A stretch of 64,000 nt of DNA from a virus. The notes beneath the pieces were generated by a model. The model did not search any database, was not told the DNA's origin, and worked only from the letters and a program-made list of their open reading frames with translations. The number at the start of each line of letters is the position of its first letter. The first letter of the stretch is position 1. Of this stretch, positions 1,182-63,205 are shown piece after piece. The stretch lies in the IMG/VR virus record IMGVR_UViG_3300000983_000001, positions 22,891 through 86,890 of that record; one strand, given 5' to 3'. Both the position numbers and the translations under genes were made by a program.

Positions 1182-4100
1182 ATGGAAAAAAATAATATAA
1201 ATAGATTAGGCAACGGTATAGTTAAAGATGCTTCTCCTATAGATCAACCACAAAATAGTTATCGTTTTGTTTTGAATGGTATTCAGGAAACGAAAAAGGG
1301 GGATTTAAATTTTATTGGAAATGCAGAAAGTAATGTTGCTTGTGCAGAGTTTCCAGAAAACTATGTGCCTATAGGTAAAGAATATATAGGTAAAGGTAAT
1401 ACTGTTATATTTTTGGTTAATCGTGATGAAACAAGTTCTGAAATAGGTATTTTAAATGAATATTGCAGATATAAAACTATAGTAAATGCAGATTTAGGTT
1501 TCAAAATCACAAATCAAATTGATGCAACTTTCAAGTTGAGACGGGGTTGTGGTAGAACAATTTATTGGGTGGATGGTTGTAATAATCCTCCAATGATTTT
1601 TAACTTAGATAAACCAGAAGATTTTCAAGATACTAATGGAATTTGGGATATTGATAAATTTAGTTTATTTAAAACCACTAATTCAATACCTGAGATTATT
1701 AATATTCAAACAGAAGAGACAGGAGAGCTTTTACCAGGTTCTTATAATTTTGCAATACAATACTTAGATCAAGATTTTAATGGTACTGAATGGCTTTCTA
1801 CGACCGATACAGTTATTATCTACAATGACAATCCTAATGGAAAAGAATATAGCGCAATTAGAGGATCAACTAATTTAAAAGAGATTCACAGAAATTATGG
1901 AAAAACAAATAAATCTATAGTTTTTGATTTAGCTAAATTAGATGCTAATTTTATTTATTATAGAATAGCTATTATTCATTCGACTAATGGTAGTGGAGAA
2001 GTTTCTGGTGTCTTTTATACAAAGGAAATTCCACTGCAAATAGACAGTTTCACTTACACAGGTAATGAAAGTTTTACAAAAGGTACTGTAGAAGATGTCC
2101 AACAATTTCAAAATATTATTGCTCATGCAGATCACATAGAGCAAATAGAAAACAGACTTACGCTTGCTAAAACTAAAGGTAAAGATGTTGAATATTGCAA
2201 ATTACAAAATTGTGCATCTCAAATAACTGCGGACTTGGTGTTTGAAGAAATATATTTAAATAATATAGAAATACCTAATAATCCAAAAAGAGGCGTTTAT
2301 CATTTAGAAAAAGTCGGTTATATGCCAGGAGAAATATATTCGTTTGGTATAGTTTACTTATTTAAGGATGGCACAAAATCTCCTGTTTTTCATATACCAG
2401 GTCGAGCGCAAGGTTATTTATCAAGTATGAGTTTAGATAATCAAGCACAAGATGATATTTATATTGACAATAAAACTTGTTGTAACTACAGTTATTGGGG
2501 AGTAGATTCACAAGGACAAAACTTAGTTGGAACTCCAATTAGACACCATAGATTTCCTTTAAGGAGCGAAGTAAATAGGCCTTTATTTTATCAAAACAGT
2601 AGTAATCAGATAGTTACAAACTATGAGCTTTGCTTAGATATAGCAGGTAATATTAACCCTTTGTATCTTGATGATGAAGTAACTGTTTTAGTTACCTATA
2701 CAGTAGGGGGGACTACCTACACTAAACTAATTACTGTAGATTTAACAAATTATAATCCTACAAACGGTATAGCTTGTTTTTTCATAGATCAAAATACTTC
2801 TCCTTTAGTTTTTACAAGTGCGGTAGAACAACCTTCTCCTGTAAGTGGTTTAGTTCCAGGCTTAACTTATATTGGTGAATATGAGCAATCTAATTTAGAA
2901 ATAAGTGATACTGTTTACAGAAGTGAAATAATGGGCATTCGTTTTGATAATATAAAAACACCACAATTACCTGGTGATAACGAGATAATAGGTTATTATA
3001 TAGTCCGAAATGAACGAACAGAGAAAGAAAAAACTATACTAGACAATGGTATATTAACACCTTTAATTATTGAAAAAAGACAAGGGGTTGAAAGATTTGT
3101 TGCTCATGGACATTTAGCTCCAAATACAACAGACTTAAAAGAGGATGTAATGGCTTTGATTCATCCTGAGTTCAAATTCAGAGGGAGAGAATATTCAAAT
3201 ACAACTGAATATATTCAAGAGGGGGAGTATGTAATTAATACAAGAAGACTGAGTGATGAAATAGTCCAAGATGTTCAAGCAGGTACATCTTATGATCCAA
3301 GTATAAATAAAAGACGGGAAGAAGATTCAGATGGTTTTGACTTACATGTTGGTGTGAGATACAACAGCAACACTTTTACATCAGTTAATCTCATACTAGC
3401 TCAGGGGGGAGATATAGCTAAAACTTTTTATTTAGATGCATTACATGGTAACACTATAACAGATACTAATGGAGATAGAAAAGAAATATTTAATCTTTCC
3501 ACAGACAATAAGATAGGGTTTCTACAACTTAATACAAACTTAGATACAACAGTAATTAAAGATAGATTACCTTATGTTGTAATGAAAAGAGATTTAAATA
3601 ACCCTTACAGTGCGTTTAGGGTTTTACCTTATTTTAAGGAAAATGATAACCCTATATATTTTACCAATGCACAATTCAGTGCTATAAATCTTTTTAATGG
3701 TGATTCTTATATATCACCTATGAATTATTTAAGTACAGTTCAGTATGACATCCGCCTGAGAGAAAGGAGAACTAAAAAAGGGATATTAAATTGGATTATA
3801 GGTGTTTTAGCGGTTGTCGGAGGTACAGCTTTGACTATATTTTCAGCAGGTACATTAGCAGTAGCAGGTCTTGGTATTATTGGATATGGTATATCTGAAT
3901 TAGCAAGTGGAATAAAGCAACTACAAACTTCTATAATATATCAGCAGAAGTATGAGCAGGGACTAAAAGACACTGTTGATGATTTAGATACACAAGCTAT
4001 TTTTTCTCAAAACCCCCCTGATGATGAAATTCAGTTTTTTCATGATATATTACCAAATATTTTCATCGAATCTGGTGTTAATATGAATTGGAGAATGGGT

Positions 4101-5896: not shown

Positions 5897-7444
5897 ATGA
5901 GTAAAAGAAATAAAAATATAGATTGGGTAAAATATTTATCGGGTGGCACAATTTATCCACATGTAAAAAACCCGTATGATGTTTTAGCCAAGAATCAACA
6001 AGATATTGCTCATGCTAAATATAAAGCATCAACTAATCCTTTAACTATAGGTATGCGAGGTTTAGGTCATTTGGCTATGCAAGCCAGTATTAATTCTGGT
6101 GGATTAGGTAATTTACCGTTCTTACAAAAAAATGGTTTAGGTGACTTTGCCAATATGGTGATGGGAACTGCTGCAAATATGAATTTTGGTTTGGGTGGAA
6201 ATGTGAAAAGAGTTGGTGTTGAAGTTGAAGGAAAAGAAGTTGCGGAAAAACCCAATGGAGAAATTGTAAAATTTCAAGGTAAAGATCATGAACAAGGTGG
6301 TGTTAAAACTAACTTAGAGGTAGGTACAGATGTTTTCTCTAAGCGAATAAAGGTTGATGGTATTTCAATGGCTGACAGAAAACTGAAAAGAGAAAAATTA
6401 GAAAATAAATATAAAAAAATATTAGCTTCACCAGATATAAAAAATGATCCTTTAAGAAAAAAAACATTAGAGTCTAATCTAAAAACTTTAATGAGTGAGA
6501 ATGAAAATGATAAAAAAATACAAGAAACCTTAAAAAATTTTAGTTCAGGTGAGCAGAATTTTATGGGAGGAGGTACAGTAGAAGATGATGATGAAAATGA
6601 AACTTTTGGTTGGACATATAATAAAGAAACTGGAAATTGGGATTTATTTGATGATAAGGATAAGCAATTAAAACCAGGTGAATGGGACATGAATGGCACA
6701 GGTGTTGGCGGTTTTACACCTAGAGGGGGTCAACTTTATATACCAGAAGATAAAGAAGAACCTAAAACTAATAAAACAGGTCTTACAAACCCTTTAGTGG
6801 CTTCTGGTGAGGGTGTAGGTACTTATGGCAATGCACTTAGTATGTTAGGTACTGCTGTCGGCACTGTTGGACAATTTGGATTAACACATAAAGCACGGGC
6901 TACTGCTCCCCCTAATGTGAATAGCTTTAAAGATTATGGGAGAAGAGGTTTAGAGACATTAGATAAAAGTAAAGATTTTGTTGCTCAAATGCGAGATTCA
7001 AGCTTGCAAGATTTAGAGCTATCTAGGAATGCAAGTATTCAAAGAGGTAGAAATAGTGCTAGAGGGGTGAATCAAATGAGAGCTTTAGATTTAGCCTCAA
7101 CTCAACAGGCAAATCAGCAAGAAAGAAGTATCAACAATGATTTTAGTAACTCTATGATGGGTATATTGAATCAAGAGGCTGTTATGCAGAATCAGCAAGA
7201 TAGTGTTGTTATGCAAGGTGAAGATAACAAGCTTACTAACAATAAAAAAGATCATGGAGCTTACTATAGTAATTTGTCTAAAAACCTTTCAGATATGGGA
7301 TTAGGTTTACAGCATTTAGGTAAAAATTTAAATGATGTTCAAAGAGATAGAGCGATGCTTAGGTTAATGACAGAGTTAGAAAAATATGGTATAACTTCTA
7401 ACAGCAAAGGACAATTTGTAACAAAAAAGAAAAAGAAAAAATAA
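5897..7444 (+). CDS. Ejected/cargo virion protein 1
   Basis: 515 aa with an EVEGKE...FQGKDHEQGGV block, three [FY]xxGG motifs and a Gln/Asn-rich helical C-terminus. It lies between the tail stabilisation gene and the vRNAP. Confidence 0.6.
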   Translation: MSKRNKNIDWVKYLSGGTIYPHVKNPYDVLAKNQQDIAHAKYKASTNPLTIGMRGLGHLAMQASINSGGLGNLPFLQKNGLGDFANMVMGTAANMNFGLGGNVKRVGVEVEGKEVAEKPNGEIVKFQGKDHEQGGVKTNLEVGTDVFSKRIKVDGISMADRKLKREKLENKYKKILASPDIKNDPLRKKTLESNLKTLMSENENDKKIQETLKNFSSGEQNFMGGGTVEDDDENETFGWTYNKETGNWDLFDDKDKQLKPGEWDMNGTGVGGFTPRGGQLYIPEDKEEPKTNKTGLTNPLVASGEGVGTYGNALSMLGTAVGTVGQFGLTHKARATAPPNVNSFKDYGRRGLETLDKSKDFVAQMRDSSLQDLELSRNASIQRGRNSARGVNQMRALDLASTQQANQQERSINNDFSNSMMGILNQEAVMQNQQDSVVMQGEDNKLTNNKKDHGAYYSNLSKNLSDMGLGLQHLGKNLNDVQRDRAMLRLMTELEKYGITSNSKGQFVTKKKKKK

Positions 7445-7445
7445 G

Positions 7446-10397
7446 ATGTCACAATATTATAATAGTGCAAGATCACAATTTTTGCCAGATAGTATGTATA
7501 AGTCTCCTATAGATTTAATGAAGCTTGTTTTAAAAAAGAAACAGGCAGCACAGCAGGACTTCTTTACAAAATCTGAATTGTTTCAGGGTGCAATTGATGA
7601 TATTAGTCACCTTAATTTTAAAGCTGACAATGATAGGGTTTTAGAAAAGCAAAATTATTATAATGGTAAGGTAGATAATCTAACAAAAAAAATGCGAAAT
7701 GATCCTGTTAATTATCAAAAATATTTGCCTGAATTAAGGCAATTGCAAAGAGAGTTAATTCAGGATAAAAAAAGTGGGGAACTATTTCATATAGAAAATA
7801 GATATAATAAAAGACAACAATGGTTAAAAGATAACAAAAAAATTAAAGAAAGCAGTCCTGATTTATATAATAGAATAAATAATTATTGGAACTCGGATAT
7901 AATAGGAAGAGCAACAGAAGATTCGGAAGCTGCTTTTAACGGGCAGCAGATTATAGAAAGACCAGAATTAATCCAAGCTTATAGGAAGGTTTTTGAAAAC
8001 TTAAAAGCATCGGCCACAGAAATAACACCTGACGGAACATATATAATAAACAATACAGAAGTAACAGAAGATCAAGTTGCACAGATGGCCCATAATACTT
8101 TAATGGCACATCCTGATTTTAAAGGTTATGTTTCTCAAATGGGGAGTTTGTTAGGGGATAGTGGTTTTTTTACAAAAGATGAAGAGGGAAATACAACTGG
8201 TGGTGTGCCTGCATTTATTTATTTAGATAGAGAGAGTAATATTTTATCACCAGAAGATTTTAGCTCTTTGTCTGCAAAAGACGCAGGAGAAGTTGTTCGA
8301 GTTTTAAACCCTGAATATGCTTTTTATAATGATTTAGCCTCTGTTACAGGTACTTACAGCAATAAAGAACAGAAAATAAGAGAAAATAAATTTGGTTTAC
8401 AAGAAAGAGGATCGAAATTAAAAATAGCAGAAGATAATAATAAAAATCTTAATGCTCAAAGTTTAATTACACTTAGAAACCAATATGACGAAATTGAGGG
8501 ACAACAAAAGTATGTTCGAGATTTAGCCTTAAAAACTTTAGATCATGAAGCTAAGGCTAGGCTAAAAGCTTTAGACGCAGATTTATCTTTAAAACTAGAG
8601 CAAATTGGCATAGAAGGCGCACAAGTTGAAGAACAGTTAAAACAAAACAATAAAGTAGAACTATTAAAATATAAACAAAATTTCGGAGAACGTGATAAAT
8701 ATTTAGACTATAGCTATGGTAATTCAGAGGCACATAGGGATCACGGTTTTGATAAAGTTATAAAAAGAATTACTGCTGAAAATCAAGCAGCCAGAGATGC
8801 TAAAAAACATGAAGCTCAAAAATTATTAGAAGACCACAAAAATAAACATAGGCGTAGTGCTGCGGATAAAAAATTTGAGCGAGATGTTAAGAAGATGGGT
8901 GTTTCTCAATCTCAGAAAAAAGAAATTATTGGAATTAAAGAAGAAGTAGATAACAGAAAAAGTCAAAGAGATTATAAAGAAGCTTTTAATTTACAAGGTT
9001 CAAGATTGGCACATAAAAAAAATGCAGCAACTACTAAATATAACAGAGATGTAAAATTAGCAAAATACAAATCTGATTTAAAGAGAGGTGACGCTGCTGC
9101 TCAATTTGAGAATAAAAAAAATTATGAAGCTTGGAAACAAAAGAATATTAAAAGTAAATCCAGTGGCAAGTCTAACAACAAAGGTAGTAAAGGTGGTTCT
9201 GTTGATGGTACATTATATATGGACACTAATGAGAGAATGTACGAGCAAAAAGATTTTCAAAATCTTATTCCAGAATATAACAATTATAGTAAGTTGGTAG
9301 ACGAAAAAACTAAAGAGTTATCTGAATTAGACCCTAACTCCCCCCAATATGATTTTAAGAGGAAAGAGTTGACAGACGCTAAAAGAGATTTAGCAGATAG
9401 TTATGGTTTAATTACAGAAAGAGATTCTGACTGGGATGCACATGTTCGTAAAAAAAGACCTGATCTAGTTCACTTATTAGATGATTTAACTTTTGAGGAA
9501 GCACTAACTCTTAAAAATCAAAAATCTAAAAGAACTTTTGATAAAAATGGTATGCCTAATAATCCTATGTCAACTTTAACTCATAGTGATGAAAGAGCTT
9601 TAAGAGATTTAGCGGAAACTTTTAATGAAGATTGGTCTAAAGCCAGAGCGAACTCTGCTGTTTATAAAAATAATAATATAATAACGGCTGTAGAATCTGT
9701 GGGAGAAAAGAACGAGTGGAGGAGTTTTGGAAAAGCAGCTATGGGTGTTTCTAATGTGAACAACACTGTTTTTAAACAAAACGGTAAAGAAGTTAAATCT
9801 TTAGAATTAAAAAATCCAGGTTGGGGTAGTGATTCTCATATTGGAGGTTTAGATGAAATTAGAGCTATAACAGGTGCAGAAAGTAATGAGGAAATATTTG
9901 AACAAAAAGCTATCAGAAAAAATGATGATGGTTCTTTTGTGGTTACAGGAAGATTTACAGAAGAAGCTGCACAACATATTGATGGCTACAACGGACAAGA
10001 TATAGAGTTACATCTGTCAGGAACAAACATGAATAAAAGAATTGATGAATTTGCTAAAGGTACAGATGCAGCTAATTCTGATATGTTCTTGAACCAAACT
10101 AATCCAGATTATTTACATTATTATAATCGTTTAAACAGAGGTTTCACAAGACCACCAGATGAATTATCAAAAGACCCTAATTCTTATTCGCCTATAAGTA
10201 TGACAACTTATAATAGTCAAACAGATGAACAAACATCTTGGGAAGTTGAATTTAGCGACCCGACCAATAAAGTTTATACATTACATAATTTAAGCAATGG
10301 TAATAGTACAAGTTATTTTATAGACAAAGACGGAAAACAATATAAAATTACATCAAAAGAACAGATCGCCAGAATATTAAGCGAGATGAATAAATAA
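7446..10397 (+). CDS. Ejected/cargo virion protein 2
   Basis: 983-aa helical/coiled-coil ORF tightly coupled to its neighbours in the cargo cluster. Confidence 0.55.
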   Translation: MSQYYNSARSQFLPDSMYKSPIDLMKLVLKKKQAAQQDFFTKSELFQGAIDDISHLNFKADNDRVLEKQNYYNGKVDNLTKKMRNDPVNYQKYLPELRQLQRELIQDKKSGELFHIENRYNKRQQWLKDNKKIKESSPDLYNRINNYWNSDIIGRATEDSEAAFNGQQIIERPELIQAYRKVFENLKASATEITPDGTYIINNTEVTEDQVAQMAHNTLMAHPDFKGYVSQMGSLLGDSGFFTKDEEGNTTGGVPAFIYLDRESNILSPEDFSSLSAKDAGEVVRVLNPEYAFYNDLASVTGTYSNKEQKIRENKFGLQERGSKLKIAEDNNKNLNAQSLITLRNQYDEIEGQQKYVRDLALKTLDHEAKARLKALDADLSLKLEQIGIEGAQVEEQLKQNNKVELLKYKQNFGERDKYLDYSYGNSEAHRDHGFDKVIKRITAENQAARDAKKHEAQKLLEDHKNKHRRSAADKKFERDVKKMGVSQSQKKEIIGIKEEVDNRKSQRDYKEAFNLQGSRLAHKKNAATTKYNRDVKLAKYKSDLKRGDAAAQFENKKNYEAWKQKNIKSKSSGKSNNKGSKGGSVDGTLYMDTNERMYEQKDFQNLIPEYNNYSKLVDEKTKELSELDPNSPQYDFKRKELTDAKRDLADSYGLITERDSDWDAHVRKKRPDLVHLLDDLTFEEALTLKNQKSKRTFDKNGMPNNPMSTLTHSDERALRDLAETFNEDWSKARANSAVYKNNNIITAVESVGEKNEWRSFGKAAMGVSNVNNTVFKQNGKEVKSLELKNPGWGSDSHIGGLDEIRAITGAESNEEIFEQKAIRKNDDGSFVVTGRFTEEAAQHIDGYNGQDIELHLSGTNMNKRIDEFAKGTDAANSDMFLNQTNPDYLHYYNRLNRGFTRPPDELSKDPNSYSPISMTTYNSQTDEQTSWEVEFSDPTNKVYTLHNLSNGNSTSYFIDKDGKQYKITSKEQIARILSEMNK

Positions 10398-22400: not shown

Positions 22401-24464
22401 AAAACGCCTATTGGTAGTATGGCTGTACATGCCACTCAAACAGGATTTAACCTTTGGGGTAAATATTTTCCCTATGGAGATAAATACATAACTAAAGCAG
22501 TCGAATTTATAACTTCTGAAATCGGAGGAGAAGAAATATCTCAAAGAAAAGAAGTTGAGATATATGAAACCGTATTTTCTGAAATGAAAAAATATTTTTT
22601 TACATCTAAAGTTTTAGGTTTGTATGAAGGAGATGTACAAAATAAAAGATATGAGTTATTCATAGATTATAAAGACAAGAAAAAGTCTTTAGCCACTTAT
22701 TTAAGTGATCTCTCTTTTGACAAAGAAAGTCCTGTTAAAGATAATACTCTACTATCAAGGTTTACTTATAAACTATCAAAAACAGGTGTTCCCTCTTTGA
22801 TTCAATTTAACAATACTAAAGCTGAGAATTTTGATGAAGAATATTTATATCAAGGTATTACAGAATTATTGGAAAAAAATATAGAATTACCTAAATTTAA
22901 TGATCGAGAGTATAGCAGTAGAGAACTAGCTGTTGATCTTATTGCATATGCTTATTTAGAGGGTGGTATTCAAAAAGCTGTTCAGTTTGTTAAATATATA
23001 CCAATTCCATTACTTAAACATATCCCTTTTGCTAAGTATACTAGAGAATGGGATAATAGGTATAGACCTGATATTTTTGGTAAAATGTTAGGTTACTTTG
23101 GTGATGTAAGTTCTACTACTTTTTTAGATCAATTTAGTCAAAATAATCTTGAAAAACTAAGTAAAGCCGACTTGAAAGATTCAGGTATCATTAATAGATT
23201 CTATGGAGATAATACACAAAAATTAGATTCTTTAGTTGAATTTAGTTTAGATAAAGATACTGTACAGGGACAAAAACTAAAAGAAAAAGTTTATATTTCT
23301 ATATACAATAAAAATATTAAACACGGATTACCAAAATTTCAAGTTTATAAAAAAGACGGAAATTTATATAAAAGAATATCTGTTTTAGGTGCTTTTGGTA
23401 TGTCCGAGTATGATATGAATAACCCTTCAATAGATTCTCTTGTTAACAAAAATTTTAAACCTGAATTTCATGGTGTATCTCTTGCAAGTTTGCCTAAGCA
23501 GAAGCCAGTTAAAAATTTAGATTTAATTGGTGTGACTTTGATAGAAGCTTTAAATCAAATTACAAATTTAAATTTAAAAACAGACAAACATCTTAAAGTT
23601 TTAAGTAAACTCTTGACTCGATATGTGGGTAATGACATTAAATTTGATATAGCGGATATAGTAAACAAAAAAGGGGAACATATTGGAGCAGGTAGTTTTA
23701 ATAGCAAAAAAAATCTGTTAACTATAGATAGGCGATTTTATGCAGAATATCCTGATTCAGAAATAGCTAAAACATTAGTTCATGAAACTATACATGCTTT
23801 AAGTGTAAATTATATTAGAAAATATGTTAACAGAGATGGAACTTTAGTTGAAAACACTCAAACACCAGTAGAAATAAACGAACTTATTAAACTTTTTAAT
23901 TCAGCAAGAAAACATATTGGTATTGATAAGATAAATAAATTAATTGAAAAGCAGAAAAAACATCGAATTGGAACACTAAAAGAAAAAATAACTTCCTATG
24001 AAACAAGTGTTGTATATGGTGGAACAGATATATCAGAATTTATAACCTTGATATTAACAGAACCAAATTTTCAAAAAGAAATGGCTAAAATTGAATATCA
24101 AAGTAACCAATCTATTTTAGATAAAATGGTTGATATAGTTTACTCAATTCTTAATAAAATTTTTGAAAATGGTTTGAGTAGAAACAATGTAACCTTTCAT
24201 GGTGTTAAAACTTCACTGCAAATTATTAAGCAATATGATTCCAACAAAAAAGCAGTGAAATCTGAAAATTTGAATACCCTTAAAAGTATGGATACCTCAA
24301 ATAGAAAAGCTGAAACCCTTATTGAAAATGTTGCACCTAAACCAGAAGTTAAAGGGTTATTTGGTTTACCTCCAATTGATTTAACTCATCTTCAAGCAAA
24401 TGAGGAAGATATAAATTTTAACATAAAAGAAAACATTATAACTAATCCATTTAAATGTAAATAG
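10407..24464 (+). CDS. Virion-packaged DNA-dependent RNA polymerase (double-psi beta-barrel, phi14:2 gp66-like) with accessory domains
   Basis: 4685 aa. Catalytic DFDIDK at nt 20967-20984, preceded by RIPTSGHVSM and GDLLIVP. Upstream blocks ATDAQEY, LKPVH and VKSSSFPL. C-terminal HETIH zincin motif at nt 23781-23795. Confidence 0.9.
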   Translation: MFGDGDKNKKQNKNNALDLTTGKIVEVEDRVVVINPATGKMYKTTNPLRIDHRAGTMNVDPVMQEEFENLGINPTQNVREDIGKTIIAKNKPFLDQAGNAVKQFGYNTVGGFGMAVSGNDLGAAIDIAKGAEREYENALFKWSNDLIKEGKEKYPIFQEAEGAVNPGDPNWWLQHGADFGTSGGFAAYSVAESVLLGIATAETGGVGAIANLASKGQKIAKIRELSAAKKLKDYFKANNSTKVIRNQALLGASQGYREGLVESYDSYTSIKEDYLKKGYTEEDAKKYASLGAVKTFRTGVLPNMILNSVSLAATSYNPITKKSKGILDRKIKNPVAKGVANTTADMANEFTEEFIQSAAQKEGRAAADLAAGEKEKGISLTEHLTDEENWNAGIGGIFGSIGFKGLSYLKNNKNAKLQDAHWAEKHSQHIEALNNRSLGYLKSIKEAEDKEDYGESIRLRREMNSQNTLKSLYLDDVSDNDSGYKGQMAYYENVLNYINTGQTELLEELKIQPEDYDFIKEKFPIYIKDSKNIKKHYDIAKERHSSNAVLPITENKHALDLIREKRESVKQDIEDIKSNNGYDKLSVSGQNYLEDSSRFTDLLIASENTSITEDQKNEIDELRKSLSYRRELRDQKIDLKNDHEDFQLSQDLSKDDDLIWELNNTDKDGKTINSFEDKTPKNLDFNNRLLGNLNKAEKQLQKNIKYWSDPKNQIAEAKKETFRQVDEAETVQELEQAEQQLEQLQEATAPKQNAEQVDEAEIVQPKTTETQEIELKQAEAKARKEALETTQNTGQNVETPSIPKPKKGNLTLGDILASQGDFVGLSEEGNSNEDFDRLDAMFGETPDINFNEDTNNLAGEEDHLTFDPVEFTPEIEEDERLNDAADIVKKTRKRLSQELGRTSTFKDYIEKYISLKGKESADKLFNVFKWSWQKNKFQKTNFDKVYDQVFNTYEALTDKLTTLGDAIVEPNTPDVVEKTNNDFIKEIIMQEKPVEKLDQNNQPVNTPVSHNLITHTGLRADYELAQVEDNKLVGEIVQNPVALFDSENLNSKQLLNPDKFNSGTPMMVEIPDNYRELKVQTWEDALTKGEVMTFQNWMDKNDVSRGSQEWLDKVPMFAYELDSNGEKGEAIFKIHSTDNYNLTTVGEGYKSQLEMIEEGRGEISKIRQNVFANDSTEITITEKRIGSWITVDEPITLNQANPDSVLVLATKTGFLVNGTNERFETNGRVILNKDKNFRPGSIYDLRKATNKNEYIAFQVIQPYLSKENIETAADIVSIYMHQLDVKNTYGKRSIHKEQAKKIEDITKLNIASGYKYDEEGQTFMDDDFEELLFSLVRVKTFRGLSSIEDLPQYLNKTYISPSGETVPLIKNGEAYVIKVGKSLAIGIKGKKIGKKLDYLFLNPYMVAKGKTKPFIIDNFLKVLKEDVLPKIRHNINKDSLRNNRKSVQISDGVVSEGSNYRDHLKNTLQTTVKSFNVGTKNKPFYATIVNPKISFKVKGENKKETFKEPVLEEDFSDVEPLVGEESVPSEVSEALQALKDLGIDLDSPDIQNDLDGTGINTDDYLSLATYTNLNYENIKSSRKAVPELTSLQNYELVNFIFNKTIEALGTTKKSNKQDVLRLIKKSYMDNIRPIRTKNRRLIKTLEGQPKYVNIVSRLKKENKVFEDINNSWTAIETQAFDKISKYFPGVKEVYDITTDEYEEKDHSKISLELSGKNTASKRLKKFLVATKDITSKGEVKRGYLGVETYISFDEVYNNIEKILSTPYEMLSDFDLMLLRLEENTEAYKWLPQVINKLKNAPQRVKNEFTYNFARHTLSMKFIMYSKGKDGKYTLKVYDTNAGEITRTIREAWQNNLKAKNLVGLNEDTGLHNINKVEAQKLLSEYNDWVKLHQLDYSKIKNEKLLTWLDKFGLSLSEETLDELKTNNTEIITNEGKSKVAFNSMFVKGQNTPGIFGLLADYLEGIVKKDNTDFDENPSNHPFNNANNVLKTLSKIESKYSTTTTTNSFRDGGKSIYGFTQSKYITDSVRRLKYDNDYKQTLKSKSFNGKSFILDLLINSEDFQNKFGISHVGINAFKELNKKYYGVSELTGLPDKDQEGVKLGFFQDMKQGTLSDTIGDSIKMRIAKMFVPTMSDKSQMTVLNTAVLNIRDKHFDISQKGELKNKYKFKNELKEVLYDQLILPELDRIVNFNSVVEKTNIAGYDKAAKLFLMFPQLSNLKYFDKDIGKDKRVISLMASNPTKFNKRWFEDNIKEKAIDRIINIIKTKHEDKLAQWERNEFFTRKNGNISQVKYLDNSYLNTIGGALTTKVEIAALDFIINSMISNANVHMTIAGDIAMYSKDKIGKYFNDGNVISPKDEYGDEAYILAVKDVIEPNLGKRMALLIAPGNKLAGSDSKNEKNNKYVQIFVNDYKVATKNIVTLVDLYYTADDVKIAEELVQQYENATTFEGKKLVTEKLGKYYPEIKDYFDLEATDAQEYTTSAEHINVLWKQGRLDDDQYVLIQAKLKRQFEAEQKGKEINKTDLLNYQELKLILQPLKPVHAGFKDEVDYDSMRMVYVKSSSFPLIPQLTIGTELDGLRKLLEKYEKKREKFVRVSYQSANKVGANTNSVNLFKPNGDFNNKLTLEMLDNASLTLDRTNFRIQQDVPYKSDKKYSDKVSIGTQTLKMLFGDGITDIEAKIFNFKGKKYNGKGLLKIFNGNFESYIQEQKTNLLDELGVDEFGKPLDPVKTLTKLQNILKDEANKRGYPIQDVEALGLSTKLDKHGKVVDIQFDLPLWLSPNSNRYEALLNSIVTNRLVNIKVPGSSYVVGSEAGFKTKSLGEIQNTTKIASTIFELRPNISDKEIITIYNRYKKLMNIKREGKHMSFDNFQKFLKSSQVFNYKNTYIFGNYDYKNGVFITRVNSSPTSKELLAEALPKLVEQGIDFVSFVPEDLAKKYVRSGYHQSKSSFAYNFKGEDMDKFMVTSQKNIANKIFNKNLEEISGEDIKQYNKEIPFKYQPTEITGDLIEQAGKDLNKILETYLNQFGIVVKDLKEIQENLNVDSLGFADILSKVAYTKNKEDLPPIAGEFIAYMMQYNPLVSEIIKELSETKDYKGLDKADYFKIIGELIAKDLSNKLDGDYKKSLLDKIRELVALFFDKMKSVPTNTINENIGIISNNILQQNKKLITASLYKPGAFGKPTKQVSLSEAKNSDSFGKIIIENLGAKGFILTGSTALGEQGTIQRPNENLLHDIDWVSPFSRKETKEKFLDSYPDAIFVRAIPNQDYTTDSYIISPDGTKIIDYKTKKIGEKIIIDSYNVANKKGEIIGTYKLEKNKDNKLIEKVTGVEAKVIDFFSYENYKGLKPFNKDGLNLSNWKSIFQAKLDFARYKDIWDYNRFIPNENLPFIKNKDIDQKPNLSKIIYTSAWTGSLKPAEIIEGKLKKTQVLLPSKFRTNEGKLINFFDENGNHNETYVKVDNKGNYRLKEDKIDPELLSLTSFRIPTSGHVSMSQLEIVGFLPKEMGDLLIVPANLTAQKGLDFDIDKETTYQYNTYVDKEGNIRVLSEEHRNEILADSDKELQELKAAVESGEQDAKLLIDIFGDDILNENYTEEDFKANKHLKKVNSKLTSKILENDFVGVHQAILGNSDKKVQGKINKVLSMDFANSQKELVRSVTKNSKELTSYTLLDDTHQKNKMELGASGKLGIGVYSNYSVFASLVQQAENKLILKEQIKLPSGNVVKDITFNLGNKYFDGRIGRVNSISGRSIAEAFAERQNTATDNEKEQIMGSLNINSVTINVDSLLTLMGFDKDSFEITKEEYLENPISAIVKKGKYYRVVSLPYMFLNQPIIKEYVDKIRRSKSLISKFDPAAEAKIIAELKDKYGEKDKIKIANERMLTGKNLLANISGKPDGGIQLRVLELFLKLDKIAKKVAKIQKTLNINNGGLGKSFFETINKFDKIRNLKLDYDIVVRKSGKIKMEGSFAIQNISSLVGDYRYSDKAIKGFVDMGDGIYIRPKTPIGSMAVHATQTGFNLWGKYFPYGDKYITKAVEFITSEIGGEEISQRKEVEIYETVFSEMKKYFFTSKVLGLYEGDVQNKRYELFIDYKDKKKSLATYLSDLSFDKESPVKDNTLLSRFTYKLSKTGVPSLIQFNNTKAENFDEEYLYQGITELLEKNIELPKFNDREYSSRELAVDLIAYAYLEGGIQKAVQFVKYIPIPLLKHIPFAKYTREWDNRYRPDIFGKMLGYFGDVSSTTFLDQFSQNNLEKLSKADLKDSGIINRFYGDNTQKLDSLVEFSLDKDTVQGQKLKEKVYISIYNKNIKHGLPKFQVYKKDGNLYKRISVLGAFGMSEYDMNNPSIDSLVNKNFKPEFHGVSLASLPKQKPVKNLDLIGVTLIEALNQITNLNLKTDKHLKVLSKLLTRYVGNDIKFDIADIVNKKGEHIGAGSFNSKKNLLTIDRRFYAEYPDSEIAKTLVHETIHALSVNYIRKYVNRDGTLVENTQTPVEINELIKLFNSARKHIGIDKINKLIEKQKKHRIGTLKEKITSYETSVVYGGTDISEFITLILTEPNFQKEMAKIEYQSNQSILDKMVDIVYSILNKIFENGLSRNNVTFHGVKTSLQIIKQYDSNKKAVKSENLNTLKSMDTSNRKAETLIENVAPKPEVKGLFGLPPIDLTHLQANEEDINFNIKENIITNPFKCK

Positions 24465-42011: not shown

Positions 42012-42038
42012 AATTTTATTTGTTTTTTAATTTAAAAA

Positions 42039-42188
42039 TTAGTGACAAGCTGCGTAGTTATCACCAAAGTCAATACTAATATCAATACTAACGTTTAATG
42101 GTACGACTTTGTTTGCCTTAATTATTGCTAATTTCAACGCTCTCTCTACTATCTTCTTTTTTTCTTTAGGGAATACAAGTAAAATTTC
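42039..42188 (-). CDS. polA: DNA polymerase A, exon 2 (49 C-terminal aa)
   Basis: Reads EILLVFPKEKKKIVERALKLAIIKANKVVPLNVSIDISIDFGDNYAACH*. Joined to exon 1 it restores motif C (QYHD-EILL) and the typical G-x-N-Y/W-x-x-x-H terminus. Not in the ORF track. Confidence 0.93.
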   Translation of the reverse strand, partial: EILLVFPKEKKKIVERALKLAIIKANKVVPLNVSIDISIDFGDNYAACH

Positions 42189-43113
42189 CATTGTTTTCAC
42201 ATAGGTTCGTTAATCCTATACAGTTCTCTAATGAACTTCTATATATCACTATATAGATAAGACTATATCTTATATAACAGCTTTACCATTTAAGATGTTG
42301 GTAAATTTTCTAGGTGTTACTGTTATACCCCTGCGTTTCAACTCAACTTTGAGCTTACTCCAATCTTGGATAGTCGTTGAACTCCACAACTTATATTTAT
42401 AACATTCTATAGGATATTTAGATAATATTTTCATTATCTCATAAGCTCCAAAATGTTTTCCAAAATAAAGATAACAAAATGATCTTCCGTCTTTTTTATT
42501 ATCTCTGTAAACTTGGGGTTTCATACCTAATTTCTCAAAAAAGGGAACAAAAATATTATAATGTGTATTTTCATCATAATTGTGAGTATTTAAATTAAAA
42601 AAACCATTTCTTCTGTGTAAAGAGCCATCATCATAAAACCAAAGTGCTAAACCTAAGTCATCTAAAAGACTTAATTTAGTTTTTATATCTAGTTCTTTTA
42701 TGATTTTTAATTCCATAGCTGTTTTACTGCTTAATGTGTATATTTCATTTTGATTGTATCCGTTTTTTTCGACATAACCAATCTTACCTGAAATATTACC
42801 TAACAGTTTTTGTTTAAACTCTAAATACTCTAAATATTTACAATTTGTTTTGTAAACACCTTTTCCACTTTTTTTAAGAGCTATATGTCCATCTCCAAAT
42901 TCACCAGACACTAACACTTGTACCTGATTTCTATTTAAGCTGCATAGCTGCTGATTGTCTATTTTTTGTATCATTTTAAATTCACGATTTAGTTATGACA
43001 CAATATACAAAAACTTTTTAAAACTTTCAAGTTTATCTTCACAGATTCCTTTGTAGTGTTTTTGTCTTTAAGAGTTTCCAGCAATTAACAGGGTTTATAC
43101 ACAACAATTATTT
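42189..43113 (-). mobile_element. Self-splicing group I intron (925 nt, IA-like with P7.1/P7.2)
   Basis: Exon ends in U (GAT) and the intron ends in G (CAATG). IGS GTTGTG (43100-43105) pairs with exon CACGAT, with the U-G wobble at the splice site. P AATTGCTGGAAA (43075-43086), Q AATCAGCAG (42948-42956), R GTTCAACGACTA (42371-42382), S AAGATATAGTC (42261-42271). P3 CCCTGT/GCAGGG, P8 TATAACAG/CTGTTATA, and P9 TCTATATA-GTGA-TATATAGA. Confidence 0.95.
42270..42974 (-). CDS. Intron-encoded LAGLIDADG homing endonuclease (two-motif type)
   Basis: LVSGEFGDGHI and LALWFYDDGSL motifs, located inside the intron. Confidence 0.9.
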   Translation of the reverse strand: MIQKIDNQQLCSLNRNQVQVLVSGEFGDGHIALKKSGKGVYKTNCKYLEYLEFKQKLLGNISGKIGYVEKNGYNQNEIYTLSSKTAMELKIIKELDIKTKLSLLDDLGLALWFYDDGSLHRRNGFFNLNTHNYDENTHYNIFVPFFEKLGMKPQVYRDNKKDGRSFCYLYFGKHFGAYEIMKILSKYPIECYKYKLWSSTTIQDWSKLKVELKRRGITVTPRKFTNILNGKAVI

Positions 43114-56202: not shown

Positions 56203-56721
56203 TTATTTTAGGTAATTTTTTATTTCAATTATTTGATCTTCACTAAGTTTTTTGGTAATCAAAGTTGTTGGGATACTGTAACTGTAAATAGTTTGATATA
56301 AATTAACAATATCTGAGTGATACTTTGCTTCAACTTTATCTAAATGAGGTAATAAATCATCAACTTTCAAAAAATCTTTTAGTGGTATTTCTGAAACATG
56401 TAATAGTGATTTCTCTTCTTGGTTAACCCAAATTACCTCTTTAGCATTTAAACTATAAGCCCATGTTGTAGTTTTATTGTTTCCAAAAAGTTTGATGATA
56501 TGTGATATAGTCTCATCTCCTTTTATTACTCTAAATTCCTTCAAATCGTTTGTTTGAAAAATTAAAGAGGTTAAAGGATAACCTTTTAAAATCATATCTA
56601 GTATTTCAGTCTTCACCGATATAAAAGGAGGTAGGTTATTCTTTTTTTGGTAGCCAAAATTTAATTTTTTACCTTCGTATTTTTCTACTAGCTGTTTTAT
56701 ACTAATTTTTTTAAGTATCAT
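56203..56721 (-). CDS. DUF262 (GmrSD N-terminal / ParB-like) domain protein with a degenerate active site
   Basis: YQ...ILDMILKGYPLTSLIF...FRVIKGDETISHI matches DUF262 FQR...LIDSIL.GYPIP.I....VIDGQQRLT, but DGQQR is replaced by KGDET. Confidence 0.55.
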   Translation of the reverse strand: MILKKISIKQLVEKYEGKKLNFGYQKKNNLPPFISVKTEILDMILKGYPLTSLIFQTNDLKEFRVIKGDETISHIIKLFGNNKTTTWAYSLNAKEVIWVNQEEKSLLHVSEIPLKDFLKVDDLLPHLDKVEAKYHSDIVNLYQTIYSYSIPTTLITKKLSEDQIIEIKNYLK

Positions 56722-56757
56722 TTGAGTATGTTTTAGGTTAGGTTTTAAGGTAAGAAA

Positions 56758-57029
56758 AACTGTGTAGTGTGCTTTATGTTGGTTCTGCCCTTTTCGGGGA
56801 GATATGCCGTTCCATTTGGAGGCTCTTGTGACCTTTTTATCTAACCTAAAGGATTTTTAAGATCAATTAGGCGGTCATGTGCTTTAGCGCACGGTATTCT
56901 TGATTCTTACACCAAAAATCAAGTTCTTCATTTCCTCTACACAGTTAAAAATACTTACCAGTTACTAGGTTCGGTCTAATAATAAGCGACCGAAAGATGC
57001 TGCTCTATGGGTTGGCTGCAAACTGGTAA
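56758..57029 (-). ncRNA. Candidate structured RNA (two closed multibranch domains), family not recognised
   Basis: GC-enriched intergenic region. Closing stems TTACCAGTT/AACTGGTAA (57021-57029 with 56955-56963) and AACTGTGTAG/CTACACAGTT (56937-56946 with 56758-56767), plus six or more internal hairpins. Confidence 0.6.
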
Positions 57030-57077
57030 ATTGTGGTTACATGAACAAAATAACAAAAAGTTATCAGTTTAACAAAT

Positions 57078-57584
57078 TTAAACCTGTAAAAGTTTATTGT
57101 AAAGATCACAAGCTTCTTTTTTAGGTAAACTATATTTAGCAAAAGCATGATCTGATTCTGCTGACTTGCACAGTTTTTCATTAAAATAACCATCAAAACA
57201 ATAAAAGTTTTTATCTCCATGATTATATACTTCTAGTCTATAAGTATGACAAGTAAATTCTATTCCACTTTTAGTTTCAAAATGTAAAAACTTATCTATT
57301 GAAAACAGTTTTTCAAATTGATCTACAGTTAATTTTGCTTCAACTTTTTTAAAGTCTTTTAATGAAACTTTAATCTGACCAGATTCTTCACCTATTAAAG
57401 CGTGTTGTTTATCTTCAAAAACTGCACTAACAAGAAATTTTTTACCTTTCATTCCTGGATAACCTATACCATAAGATTGAATAATATCTCCTTTAATAAT
57501 TTCAGCCTTATTTAAGTTTAGATACCAAAGGATTAATTTTCTAACCCAATTTGGTAAACACCAACTGTTTATATATTTAAGCAT
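57078..57584 (-). CDS. Hypothetical protein
   Basis: 168-aa ORF. Confidence 0.65.
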   Translation of the reverse strand: MLKYINSWCLPNWVRKLILWYLNLNKAEIIKGDIIQSYGIGYPGMKGKKFLVSAVFEDKQHALIGEESGQIKVSLKDFKKVEAKLTVDQFEKLFSIDKFLHFETKSGIEFTCHTYRLEVYNHGDKNFYCFDGYFNEKLCKSAESDHAFAKYSLPKKEACDLYNKLLQV

Positions 57585-57954: not shown

Positions 57955-57968
57955 TTAAAAATGATGTG

Positions 57969-58127
57969 TTAATGATTTGTTTTTCTAAGTAACTGTGTCC
58001 CAAAAAAGTCACTTTTAGCTGAAACATAAGCATGTTCTACACTACTATAAATATAACCTTTATAAAGTATATTTACTGGTGTGAAATTACTTAGCCACCT
58101 ATGTTCACCTTGAAATTCTTTAATCAT
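57969..58127 (-). pseudogene. Truncated NADAR/YbiA-family gene (52 aa)
   Basis: MIKEFQGEHRWLSNFTPVNILYKGYIYSSVEHAYVSAK matches the NADAR N-terminus (F.G...LSNF.P..I...G..Y.SVEH.Y.A.K), then stops. Not in the ORF track. Confidence 0.75.
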
Positions 58128-58245
58128 CAGTTATTGAATTTATAAGTAAAAAATTAAATATAACATAAAATAATTAAGTTTATGTTTTTTATAGTTTTAA
58201 TGCAGTAAATTTGGGGATTTTTTAGGTTTTTGAGGGGTTGAAAAG

Positions 58246-58341
58246 GGGTTAGTGTCCAAAGTACACTAAGCTTAACGTAATAAATACACTAAGCTTAACG
58301 TAATAAATACACTAACCTTAGTGTAAAACTGACACTAACCC
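58246..58341. repeat. 23-bp-period direct repeats with inverted copies (iteron/origin-like)
   Basis: TACACTAAGCTTAACGTAATAAA twice (58262-58307). ACACTAA at 58263, 58286, 58309 and 58332; inverted TTAGTGT at 58249 and 58318; flanking inverted repeat GGGTTAGTGTC/GACACTAACCC. Confidence 0.85.
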
Positions 58342-58346
58342 TAATA

Positions 58347-59922: not shown

Positions 59923-59985
59923 GTCAATAAGTTTAGTTTATTAAATATTAAACCTGTTATAAATCGTTTGACCTACACTCAAATA

Positions 59986-60029
59986 AAACCAAATCAAGCA
60001 TACCGTTGATGGTACACCTGATTTAGTTT
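59986..60029 (-). terminator. 19-bp RNA hairpin downstream of the 60061..60579 gene
   Basis: AAACTAAATCAGGTGTACC-ATCAAC-GGTATGCTTGATTTGGTTT pairs fully only on the minus strand (G-U pairs). Confidence 0.65.
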
Positions 60030-60060
60030 AGTGGTTGTTGGATTACCTACTTAGGCTGTC

Positions 60061-60579: not shown

Positions 60580-60864
60580 AAAATTAAAATTGAAATGTTA
60601 AAGAAAAATATATACCCAAAATTGGTATGGGTATATAGTGAGTTAATTGTCAGGTATGATTAGAGTGTTATACCGTCAATGATGTAACACAAATCTAAGA
60701 TGTATTTCTACATTTAAATTTGTGCGACAAAAAATAAGTTATTGCTCAAAATGGGTCGGGGTGTTTTAAGTGGGGCAGGTTGGGGGGCAAGGATTAGTGT
60801 GGGTTTACGTTCCCGTAAATAACACCTAAAAAATTTTTTAAAAATAAATTTTGAATAACCCCAC

Positions 60865-60872
60865 TAATTTTG
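60865..60872 (+). promoter_or_regulatory. Bacteroidota-type -7 promoter element (TAnnTTTG)
   Basis: TAATTTTG ends 13 nt upstream of the ATG (60885) of the first GIY-YIG gene. No clear -33 element. Confidence 0.4.
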
Positions 60873-60884
60873 TATATTACCTGT

Positions 60885-61772
60885 ATGGAAAATAAAAACA
60901 AAGGTATTTATATAATACTGAACTTAGTGAATAATAAATCTTACATTGGTTCTACAGTTAACTTTAAAACCAGACGAAAACAACATCTTAGGGTTTTAAA
61001 AAGAAAAAAGCATCATAGCAGTCATCTTCAATACGCTTTTGATAAGTATGGAGAAGATAATTTTGTATTTGCGCCTATAGAATTTGTAGAAAACAAGGAA
61101 GATTTAATTACCAGAGAAACCTATTGGATAGAAGTTAGGAAATCTTTAGACAGAAATTTTGGTTATAACATGAGGTCGCCTGTTGATTCCCACCTCAATT
61201 TTAAATCAAGTCAGCAAGTACCTTGTTACCTCATATGTAAAAAAAGCAATAAGATACTGGTTAAAGTTGACTCTATTAACCTGGCTAAAGCTACAAAAGA
61301 AAACAATCCTGATATAAAAATAGTTAGAGTAAAATCTTATGATCCCAATTTTGATTATCGTTTGAAGAAGTATATACCAAAAGTTAAAAAAGTTAGAGCA
61401 AGTGGTTATGGTAAACCAATAGAATCTTTTGATTTAACCACATTAGAAACGGTGATTCAATACAAAAATTCTTATGAAGCAAGTTTAGTTTTAGGTTGTA
61501 CTAGAAAATCTTTAGGAAAAATTTTATGTGGAGAAAGGAAATCTTATAGAGGACTAGGTTACAGGTACTTAGCAAAATCTACAAAAGAAAAAAGAGAAAA
61601 AATGGGAATAAGTTGTTTTATAGTTTGCACTTCAACAAACAAAATAATTAAAAGAGTTCTCTCTAAAGCAGCAGCTAAAGCTTTTAAATCAGGTAACCAA
61701 CATAAAATGGTTACAGTCGTAGAATCTGAGTATGATCCAAATAAAGATTACAGACTAAAACAAAACAGATAG
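60885..61772 (+). CDS. Free-standing GIY-YIG homing endonuclease 1 (NUMOD1-like C-terminal modules)
   Basis: GIYIILNLVNNKSYIGST...R...H, ETYWI and FGYN. Start placed at MENKN (60885). Confidence 0.9.
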   Translation: MENKNKGIYIILNLVNNKSYIGSTVNFKTRRKQHLRVLKRKKHHSSHLQYAFDKYGEDNFVFAPIEFVENKEDLITRETYWIEVRKSLDRNFGYNMRSPVDSHLNFKSSQQVPCYLICKKSNKILVKVDSINLAKATKENNPDIKIVRVKSYDPNFDYRLKKYIPKVKKVRASGYGKPIESFDLTTLETVIQYKNSYEASLVLGCTRKSLGKILCGERKSYRGLGYRYLAKSTKEKREKMGISCFIVCTSTNKIIKRVLSKAAAKAFKSGNQHKMVTVVESEYDPNKDYRLKQNR

Positions 61773-61848
61773 CACTAAAACTATTTTGAATTAAACAAAA
61801 TTTATCTTAATTTGTTTGCTTATTAGATATATCATAAAACTAAAATCA

Positions 61849-62559
61849 ATGAGTAAAGATAAACAACAAGGTATCTATAAGATATTAAATACAGTTAATA
61901 ATAAAGTTTATATAGGTTCTACCAGTAATTTTGAAAGGAGGAAAAAGCAGCATAGAAAAGCTTTAGATGGTAATAAGCACAGAAACAAATATTTACAAAG
62001 TTCCTATAACAAGCATGGAAGAGATAATTTTGAAATTATTTTTATTGAATCAACGGAATTACCAAAACTATTTGAAAAAGAAACATATTGGATAAAACAT
62101 TTCAAATCTTTAGATTCAAAGTTTGGTTATAATGCATGTCTACCTAGTCAAATACCAGCAAATAGGTTTACAGGCTATTTAATTGAATCCTACGACAATA
62201 TTACAGGAGCGACTATAGAAGTGTACGAAAATATCTTAGATGCCTCACAGAAGCTTAAATTGAATCCTGAGAGTATTAGGAAAGTTCTATGTGAAGCAAG
62301 GAAACAAAATAAAGGTCACTATTTCCGTTATAAAGATGAGAGAAAAAGAAGAAAAGTAAGCTATGAAATTAAAAGTAAACTGTCTAAAAAATTTGGAAAA
62401 CCTTGCTATATTATATCAAACATAGATAATTCTATAATAGCAGAAGTACCATCTAAAGGTGCTGCAAGAAGATATAGAAGAAAAACTTATGGTAAAATGT
62501 TGATAGTTGAGGTAAGTAAATATAATTCTAGGGTAGATTATAGAAAGAAACCCAAATAA
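61849..62559 (+). CDS. Free-standing GIY-YIG homing endonuclease 2
   Basis: GIYKILNTVNNKVYIGST...R...H, ETYWI and FGYN. Start placed at MSKDK (61849). Confidence 0.9.
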   Translation: MSKDKQQGIYKILNTVNNKVYIGSTSNFERRKKQHRKALDGNKHRNKYLQSSYNKHGRDNFEIIFIESTELPKLFEKETYWIKHFKSLDSKFGYNACLPSQIPANRFTGYLIESYDNITGATIEVYENILDASQKLKLNPESIRKVLCEARKQNKGHYFRYKDERKRRKVSYEIKSKLSKKFGKPCYIISNIDNSIIAEVPSKGAARRYRRKTYGKMLIVEVSKYNSRVDYRKKPK

Positions 62560-62585
62560 ATCTTAGGTAGACTCATTTGGGTTTC
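62547..62585. terminator. Hairpin at the convergent junction
   Basis: GAAACCCAAAT / ATTTGGGTTTC perfect 11-bp inverted repeat. Confidence 0.55.
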
Positions 62586-62622
62586 ATATTTTATATACTT
62601 ATTTATCACTATGGGGGGTAGT

Positions 62623-63120: not shown

Positions 63121-63135
63121 AATATTATTTTTTTT

Positions 63136-63176
63136 AAAAAAGCTAATACCGAATTACTGATATTAGCTTTTATTTT
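63136..63176. terminator. Bidirectional-type terminator hairpin
   Basis: AAAAGCTAATA / TATTAGCTTTT with T/A runs on both sides. Confidence 0.65.
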
Positions 63177-63205
63177 AGGATTTAATTTACACCTTTTCTT
63201 TTAAC

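Follow-up and report, generated by a model that had tools for sequence, protein, structure and literature searches.

Genomic context of the RNA element

The window, a 64,000-nt stretch covering positions 22,891 to 86,890 of IMG/VR record IMGVR_UViG_3300000983_000001, belongs to a phage record that is complete at 87,646 bp and has terminal repeats, a G+C content of 30% and a crAss-like layout. The phage is closest to Flavobacterium phage Fpv3, and its helicase is ∼40% identical to the helicases of Flavobacterium phages Fpv1-4. Owing to this likeness and to the origin of the DNA, an algae metagenome, the host probably belongs to the Flavobacteriia. The RNA element lies on the minus strand within a 356-nt spacer (56722-57077), in an early block of small minus-strand genes. 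The spacer is preceded by a 168-aa ORF (57078..57584, minus strand), which is a singleton without relatives, and followed by a 172-aa ORF (56203..56721, minus strand). One DNA sequencing run, which may be the source sample itself, matches the element and carries no variants; no RNA sequencing run is listed as containing it.

Several other features were noticed nearby. At 57969-58127, a 52-aa ORF matches phrog_1017 over its first third only (E 2e-8), as fits a truncated NADAR gene. The overlapping interval 57955-58346 contains three to four direct repeats of 23 bp within nested inverted repeats, predicting a long hairpin; it adjoins an AT-rich tract, and a −7 promoter-like box at 58206 points opposite to the gene direction. 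Two tandem GIY-YIG-like endonuclease genes (60870-62559) sit on the plus strand within the minus-strand early block, with −7 promoter-like boxes before them at 60715 and 60865 and relatives in Fpv3 and G043. Long near-perfect hairpins occupy the spacers 59923-60060, 63121-63205 and 62560-62622; on the minus strand, U-runs come after the first two, which resemble host-type intrinsic terminators.

Two folded domains

The original prediction described a GC-enriched, two-domain RNA on the minus strand. Sequence checks and folding located all its listed stems at their minus-strand places, with 36 nt between the end of the last stem and the ATG (56721) of the 172-aa ORF. The G+C enrichment is genuine but modest, 38% versus 30%, within the top 5% of windows.

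Domain 1 (56953..57031, minus strand) contains an 11-bp closing helix (57031-57021/56963-56953; nine Watson-Crick pairs and two more), one weak inner arm and one 7-bp hairpin (56994-56988/56976-56970). Domain 2 (56758..56946, minus strand) forms a multi-way junction whose closing helix is 10 bp long and perfect (56946-56937/56767-56758); its five inner arms, 56923-56913/56909-56899, 56892-56889/56882-56879, 56877-56867/56849-56844 with 56833-56829, 56823-56818/56813-56806 and 56798-56796/56790-56788, are joined by A-rich linkers. The mean pair probabilities of the helices are 0.66-0.99, and 46% of the unpaired positions of the element are A. Two details of the earlier model needed revision. 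The bulged hairpin is present, but its 4-bp upper stem would need a 2-nt loop and becomes 3 bp with a 4-nt loop; the 5-bp pseudoknot (56915-56911 with 56783-56779) is unsupported, as three of its bases are engaged in the 11-bp hairpin.

Compared with 200 dinucleotide shuffles, the whole element gave a z of −5.4 on the minus strand, which beat 200 of the 200, and of −2.1 on the plus strand. Folded alone, domains 1 and 2 gave z values of −5.3 and −5.2, respectively, each likewise outdoing every shuffle. In a genome scan, noisy at eight shuffles per window, the element ranked with the most stable of the 200-nt windows. A z of −4 to −6 is also reached by other spacers and by some coding windows of the same genome, the high values of the spacers being mostly due to one or two simple hairpins. 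These results confirmed a candidate structured RNA of ∼300 bases that folds strongly, beyond chance.

Candidate signals at the boundaries

One candidate Bacteroidetes −7 promoter element (57073..57080, minus strand) overlaps the stop codon of the upstream ORF. It fits TAHHTTTG, the Flavobacterium −7 consensus (PMC6847099), and predicts a transcription start at ∼57068. Such boxes number 69 on the minus strand, or 0.79 per kb, and four of them touch intergenic DNA; therefore, its position at the element boundary is suggestive only. Just downstream, an AU-rich hairpin of 6 bp with a U-rich run behind it (57049..57065, minus strand; pair probability 0.78) may be a weak terminator of the upstream gene or the 5′ hairpin of the RNA.

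Domain 1 is followed by a run of five U (56947..56951, minus strand), a feature found at 1.4% of background positions. At the closing-helix end of domain 2, a U-tract with seven U in eight (56752..56759, minus strand; 0.4% of background positions) forms a predicted terminator-like 3′ end, at which a standard terminator scan made no call. Domain 2 also contains a 15-codon small ORF (56884..56931, minus strand); it was rejected as a leader peptide, since 38% of shuffles carry one. The promoter box, both U-runs and the alternative helix described below had all been missed in the earlier description.

Predicted alternative helix over the start-codon region

Besides its main fold, domain 2 can pair with the start-codon region of the 172-aa ORF through a helix of 10, 5 and 4 bp (19 bp in all). 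The 5′ strand (56824..56850, minus strand) is made of segments 56850-56841, 56835-56831 and 56827-56824, and the 3′ strand lies at 56732..56755 (minus strand). The first segment complements 56741-56732 perfectly over 10 bp, and the two shorter helices extend this pairing in register; positions 56741-56732 correspond to −20 to −11 and include the A residues at −12 and −13. In Flavobacterium, structure and A residues at −3, −6, −12 and −13, not Shine-Dalgarno pairing, tune initiation (PMC6847099).

In the main fold, bases 56849-56844 and 56833-56831 of this helix are paired inside domain 2, and the helix competes with the domain 2 closing stem. The alternative duplex has an energy of −18.7 kcal/mol (shuffle P 0.005-0.018), second best among the 76 leaders of the genome, and the nested alternative fold costs 5.3 kcal/mol more than the main one. 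Blocking the 5′ strand of the closing stem in silico increased the probability of the helix from 0.003 to 0.95. The helix was found after the fact, and C/A-rich words like its sequence occur in other spacers of the same phage and as repeats in unrelated phages.

The adjoining DUF262-like ORF

The 172-aa ORF, a singleton, had been called a DUF262-like gene lacking DGQQR. The family assignment is weakly but consistently positive in targeted profile tests and negative under every curated cut-off. Pfam, PHROGs and PADLOC made no call, the PF03235 cut-off being 33.2 bits, and the atlas and PDB sequence searches were empty. With a profile of 14 Flavobacteriaceae DUF262 domains, the ORF, at 15 bits (E 1e-4), led all 92 ORFs and scored above 3000 shuffles and its own reversed sequence; hhalign against DUF262 gave a P of 1.2e-4 and a probability of 55%. 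The alignment is colinear over residues ∼7-82, suggesting a very distant DUF262/GmrS N-terminal (ParB/Srx-type) relative. The absence of DGQQR is borne out: KGDET stands in its place, and QK replaces QR. As DGQQR is the proposed NTP-binding motif (PMC4619093), it is a fair inference that the protein has lost NTPase activity.

The single-sequence structure model of the protein reached a pLDDT of only 39. Modelling on the DUF262 alignment raised it to 66, with matches to ParB and GmrSD-N, a result that is circular. The structure search also returned stand-alone GmrSD-N proteins in many viruses. Among 31 related phage records, none has a DUF262 gene above cut-off.

Searches for relatives and targets of the RNA

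The RNA element is known from one single sequence, and none of its helices is confirmed by covariation. No homologue was found by blastn against GenBank phages or, after the matches were checked, by DNA-pattern searches (five in IMG/VR, two in metagenomes and one in genomes). Single-sequence covariance models found none in 49 related phage records plus 608 kb of their early regions, nor in phage phi14:2, and gave only weak AT-biased matches in sets of 50 and 151 Flavobacteriales genomes. Such models have low sensitivity and are blind to distant relatives, so that a blank does not show absence; it is weak evidence here, because a core protein of the nearest phages is only ∼45% identical to that of this phage and the flanking genes are singletons.

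Three kinds of target were tried. Positions 57026-56993 are a near-complement of Flavobacteriaceae 16S helix 16 (∼27 bp, −40 kcal/mol); with the whole rRNA operon as target, its alignment score and duplex energy are equalled by 21% of shuffles, and the pairing was set aside as chance. No second phage copy of this stretch was found by pattern search. Docking on host tmRNA was also rejected, the longest complement being 7-10 nt in 27 Flavobacteriales tmRNAs (P 0.53). Complementarity to the phage's own genes yielded no target.

Comparison with catalogued RNA families

Rfam 15 gave nothing at the gathering cut-off; the best in-region matches are at chance level, with E values of 0.59-9.5, and no Rfam aptamer matches. 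A Dicistrovirus IGR IRES (RF00458), which is marked by three pseudoknots with conserved SL-IV and SL-V loops, was rejected with 17.9 bits against a cut-off of 44.5 and a match lying partly inside the upstream coding sequence. Words resembling RNase P, group II domain V, c-di-GMP, Moco, c-di-AMP and HEARO-like RNAs were also weighed, but in no case are the elements correctly ordered or is there an Rfam match.

The unlikeness to tRNA and tmRNA holds. No tRNA-like acceptor and T arm with a CCA end is present, and the genome is without tRNA or tmRNA genes. Six-frame translation of the element revealed no tag frame ending in Ala-Ala, and a profile of four phage tmRNAs did not match. In the related phages, by contrast, the matching early region often holds genes for tmRNA and tRNA. 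A tmRNA gene is a common feature of Fpv3-like phages, as the early regions of L351, L352, L355, L356, L359, L363, L364, L368, L371 and L384 show. Several of these genes share a frame of ∼25-45 codons with an Ala-Val-Ala-Ala-like end, far longer than the host tag of 10 residues, and ARAGORN placed their resume points differently. In G009, a complete phage that is also related, several spacers are rich in G+C and fold strongly (L354:2312-2671, 2957-3414, 6597-6837 and 8228-9194); they have no Rfam match but tRNA and differ from the element here.

Group I intron identity was rejected by eye: compared with the phage's own polA intron, the element has only isolated Q-like and S-like words and no P4-P6 domain, short of the full P, Q, R and S core with a U-G pair in P1 and a G-binding site in P7. 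Rfam reported no group I match in the element, but at cut-off it also missed the polA intron (42012-43107), probably because an endonuclease ORF splits its core. Group I P, Q and R elements could also be read by eye in gaps of Fpv3 (L080:8164-8391) and L367:6150-6920; the Fpv3 gap separates gp70 from gp69, and these two annotated genes may be a single gene split by an intron.

One part of the earlier proposal of a novel ncRNA or cis-regulatory element stands: an uncatalogued structured minus-strand RNA is supported by the fold statistics, the Rfam blank, the promoter box and the U-runs. The alternative helix, lying over the start-codon region, adds support for its cis-regulatory part.

Interpretation of the locus

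With two folded domains, a promoter-like box, U-runs and a competing 19-bp helix in place, we tentatively favour reading the interval as a structured leader that is promoter-driven and can take either of two folds, at somewhat below an even chance. Transcription would run from ∼57068 to ∼56752 and give the early gene block a leader of ∼315 nt. By default, the closing stem would form and act with the U-tract as a terminator, releasing a discrete RNA, and transcripts that read through would leave the next start-codon region open. A protein, ribosome or ligand keeping the 5′ strand of that stem unpaired would prevent the terminator helix from forming; domain 2 would then pair over −20 to −11 of the DUF262-like gene and damp its translation, and transcription would continue into the downstream genes. 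We infer the start at 57068, termination at the U-tract and the masking of the start-codon region from these features; the DUF262-like protein would be the regulated neighbour, its one link to the RNA being adjacency.

This two-state leader is supported by the sense-strand fold (z −5.2 to −5.4) together with the A-rich linkers, and by the promoter box at the boundary with U-runs after both closing helices. The 10-bp complement to the start-codon region, with its in-register helices and its rank of 2 among 76 leaders, argues in the same direction, as do the small energy gap of 5.3 kcal/mol, the shift from 0.003 to 0.95 upon stem blocking, and the dependence of Flavobacterium initiation on structure and on A at −12/−13 (PMC6847099). 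Several points argue against it: without a homologue, covariation backs no helix; the alternative helix was a post hoc finding, with similar C/A-rich words elsewhere; the 10-bp helix could be a pseudoknot within one fixed fold; and the small ORF, a possible trigger, is at chance level. A terminator helix that closes over 180 nt is unusual, and the standard scan is silent. In phi14:2, the virion polymerase reads the early genes, which have no common promoter motif (bioRxiv 10.1101/2020.03.07.982082); host-type signals here may therefore go unused.

Close behind, possible yet doubtful, comes a stand-alone trans-acting ncRNA gene, encoding either a single RNA or a pair of ∼80 and 190 nt, with paired ends. 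The RNA would occupy the early slot where relatives keep tRNA or tmRNA, the neighbouring gene would be incidental, and the 10-bp helix would be a pseudoknot or chance. The paired ends followed by U-runs in both domains agree with this, and so does the matching early region of the relatives, which holds tmRNA or tRNA genes that this genome lacks; the early intergenic ncRNAs of phi14:2, abundant and stable, offer a parallel (bioRxiv 10.1101/2020.03.07.982082), although the element has no similarity to the phi14:2 region. No target emerged (host rRNA P 0.21, host tmRNA P 0.53, none in the phage's own genes), and a stand-alone RNA by itself leaves the start-codon-region pairing unexplained. It is not exclusive of the two-state leader, as termination would make the leader, too, a discrete RNA. 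We consider it unlikely that the interval is a neutral spacer or a decayed, orphan piece of a cassette (RNA plus eroded DUF262 gene) that folds without present function. The lost motifs of the DUF262-like gene, the truncated NADAR-like ORF 0.9 kb away, the lack of conservation of anything here in any relative and the z values of −4 to −6 elsewhere in the genome would all fit decay; however, ten helices are intact, including the perfect 10-bp and 7-bp long-range stems, which is hard to maintain without selection, the scores of the other spacers come largely from one or two simple hairpins, and the ORF is open across 172 codons.

The original prediction had the RNA possibly partner a protein that decoys GmrSD/Dnd-type defences. 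In this reading, the RNA and the motif-less DUF262 protein would form a ribonucleoprotein that decoys or inhibits GmrSD/Dnd/Ssp-type defences; a variant has the protein bind its own leader. The two are adjacent on the same strand, the protein keeps the DUF262-like N-terminal pattern with its NTP-binding motif gone (PMC4619093), and self-binding would supply the trigger of the switch. Nevertheless, both RNA and protein are singletons, 0 of 31 related records has DUF262 above cut-off, and many viruses encode a stand-alone GmrSD-N protein. To our knowledge, no DUF262 protein binds RNA. Adjacency was all that lay behind the decoy claim, which found no support, and we hold any such partnership to be highly improbable.

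Returning to the two-state leader, the multi-way junction itself might close the terminator helix, and a factor-opened flip might mask a start-codon region without Shine-Dalgarno; this would be a new class of regulatory RNA, which we consider quite improbable, though less so than the ribonucleoprotein. The opening factor would be of phage or host origin, possibly the motif-less DUF262 protein. Structured RNAs of crAss-like phages are almost uncharacterised, and the transcribed ones of phi14:2 have no known function. If correct, the two-state leader would show how crAss-like phages tune genes in hosts whose ribosomes ignore Shine-Dalgarno sequences; for now, its value is limited, as it is a single sequence from an uncultured phage.

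Relation to known systems

Among protein families, the 172-aa ORF resembles the DUF262/GmrSD N-terminal domain (PF03235) in its colinear N-terminal pattern over residues ∼7-82. Different from PF03235 proteins, it has no Pfam match and no GmrD/HNH partner, its motifs are altered, and it stands alone. Among RNAs, the tmRNA (RF00023) of Fpv3-like phages occupies a similar genome region and has a similar total length, ∼380-450 nt versus a spacer of 356 nt here, whereas the element has no tRNA-like ends, no Ala-Ala tag frame and no match to the model. Like GOLLD, ROOL, raiA and HEARO in Rfam, the element has a multi-way junction, is phage-borne or mobile, and is of uncertain function; it is smaller than these RNAs and matches none of them up to E 10.

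Cis-acting leader switches include riboswitches, attenuators and the put antiterminator RNAs of phage HK022. The promoter, folded domains, U-tract and mutually exclusive start-codon helix predicted here are like theirs, the two mutually exclusive folds that mark riboswitches and attenuators being predicted in silico only. Different from those leaders, the candidate terminator helix has no short loop but surrounds a multi-way junction of 170 nt.

Phage phi14:2 produces abundant, stable non-coding RNAs from early intergenic regions (bioRxiv 10.1101/2020.03.07.982082). Transcription is shown there and predicted here, and no sequence or structure similarity was detected between the two. Nonetheless, being intergenic, sense to the early genes and carried by a crAss-like phage of a flavobacterial host, the pair of early ncRNAs of phi14:2 is the nearest precedent for the element described here.
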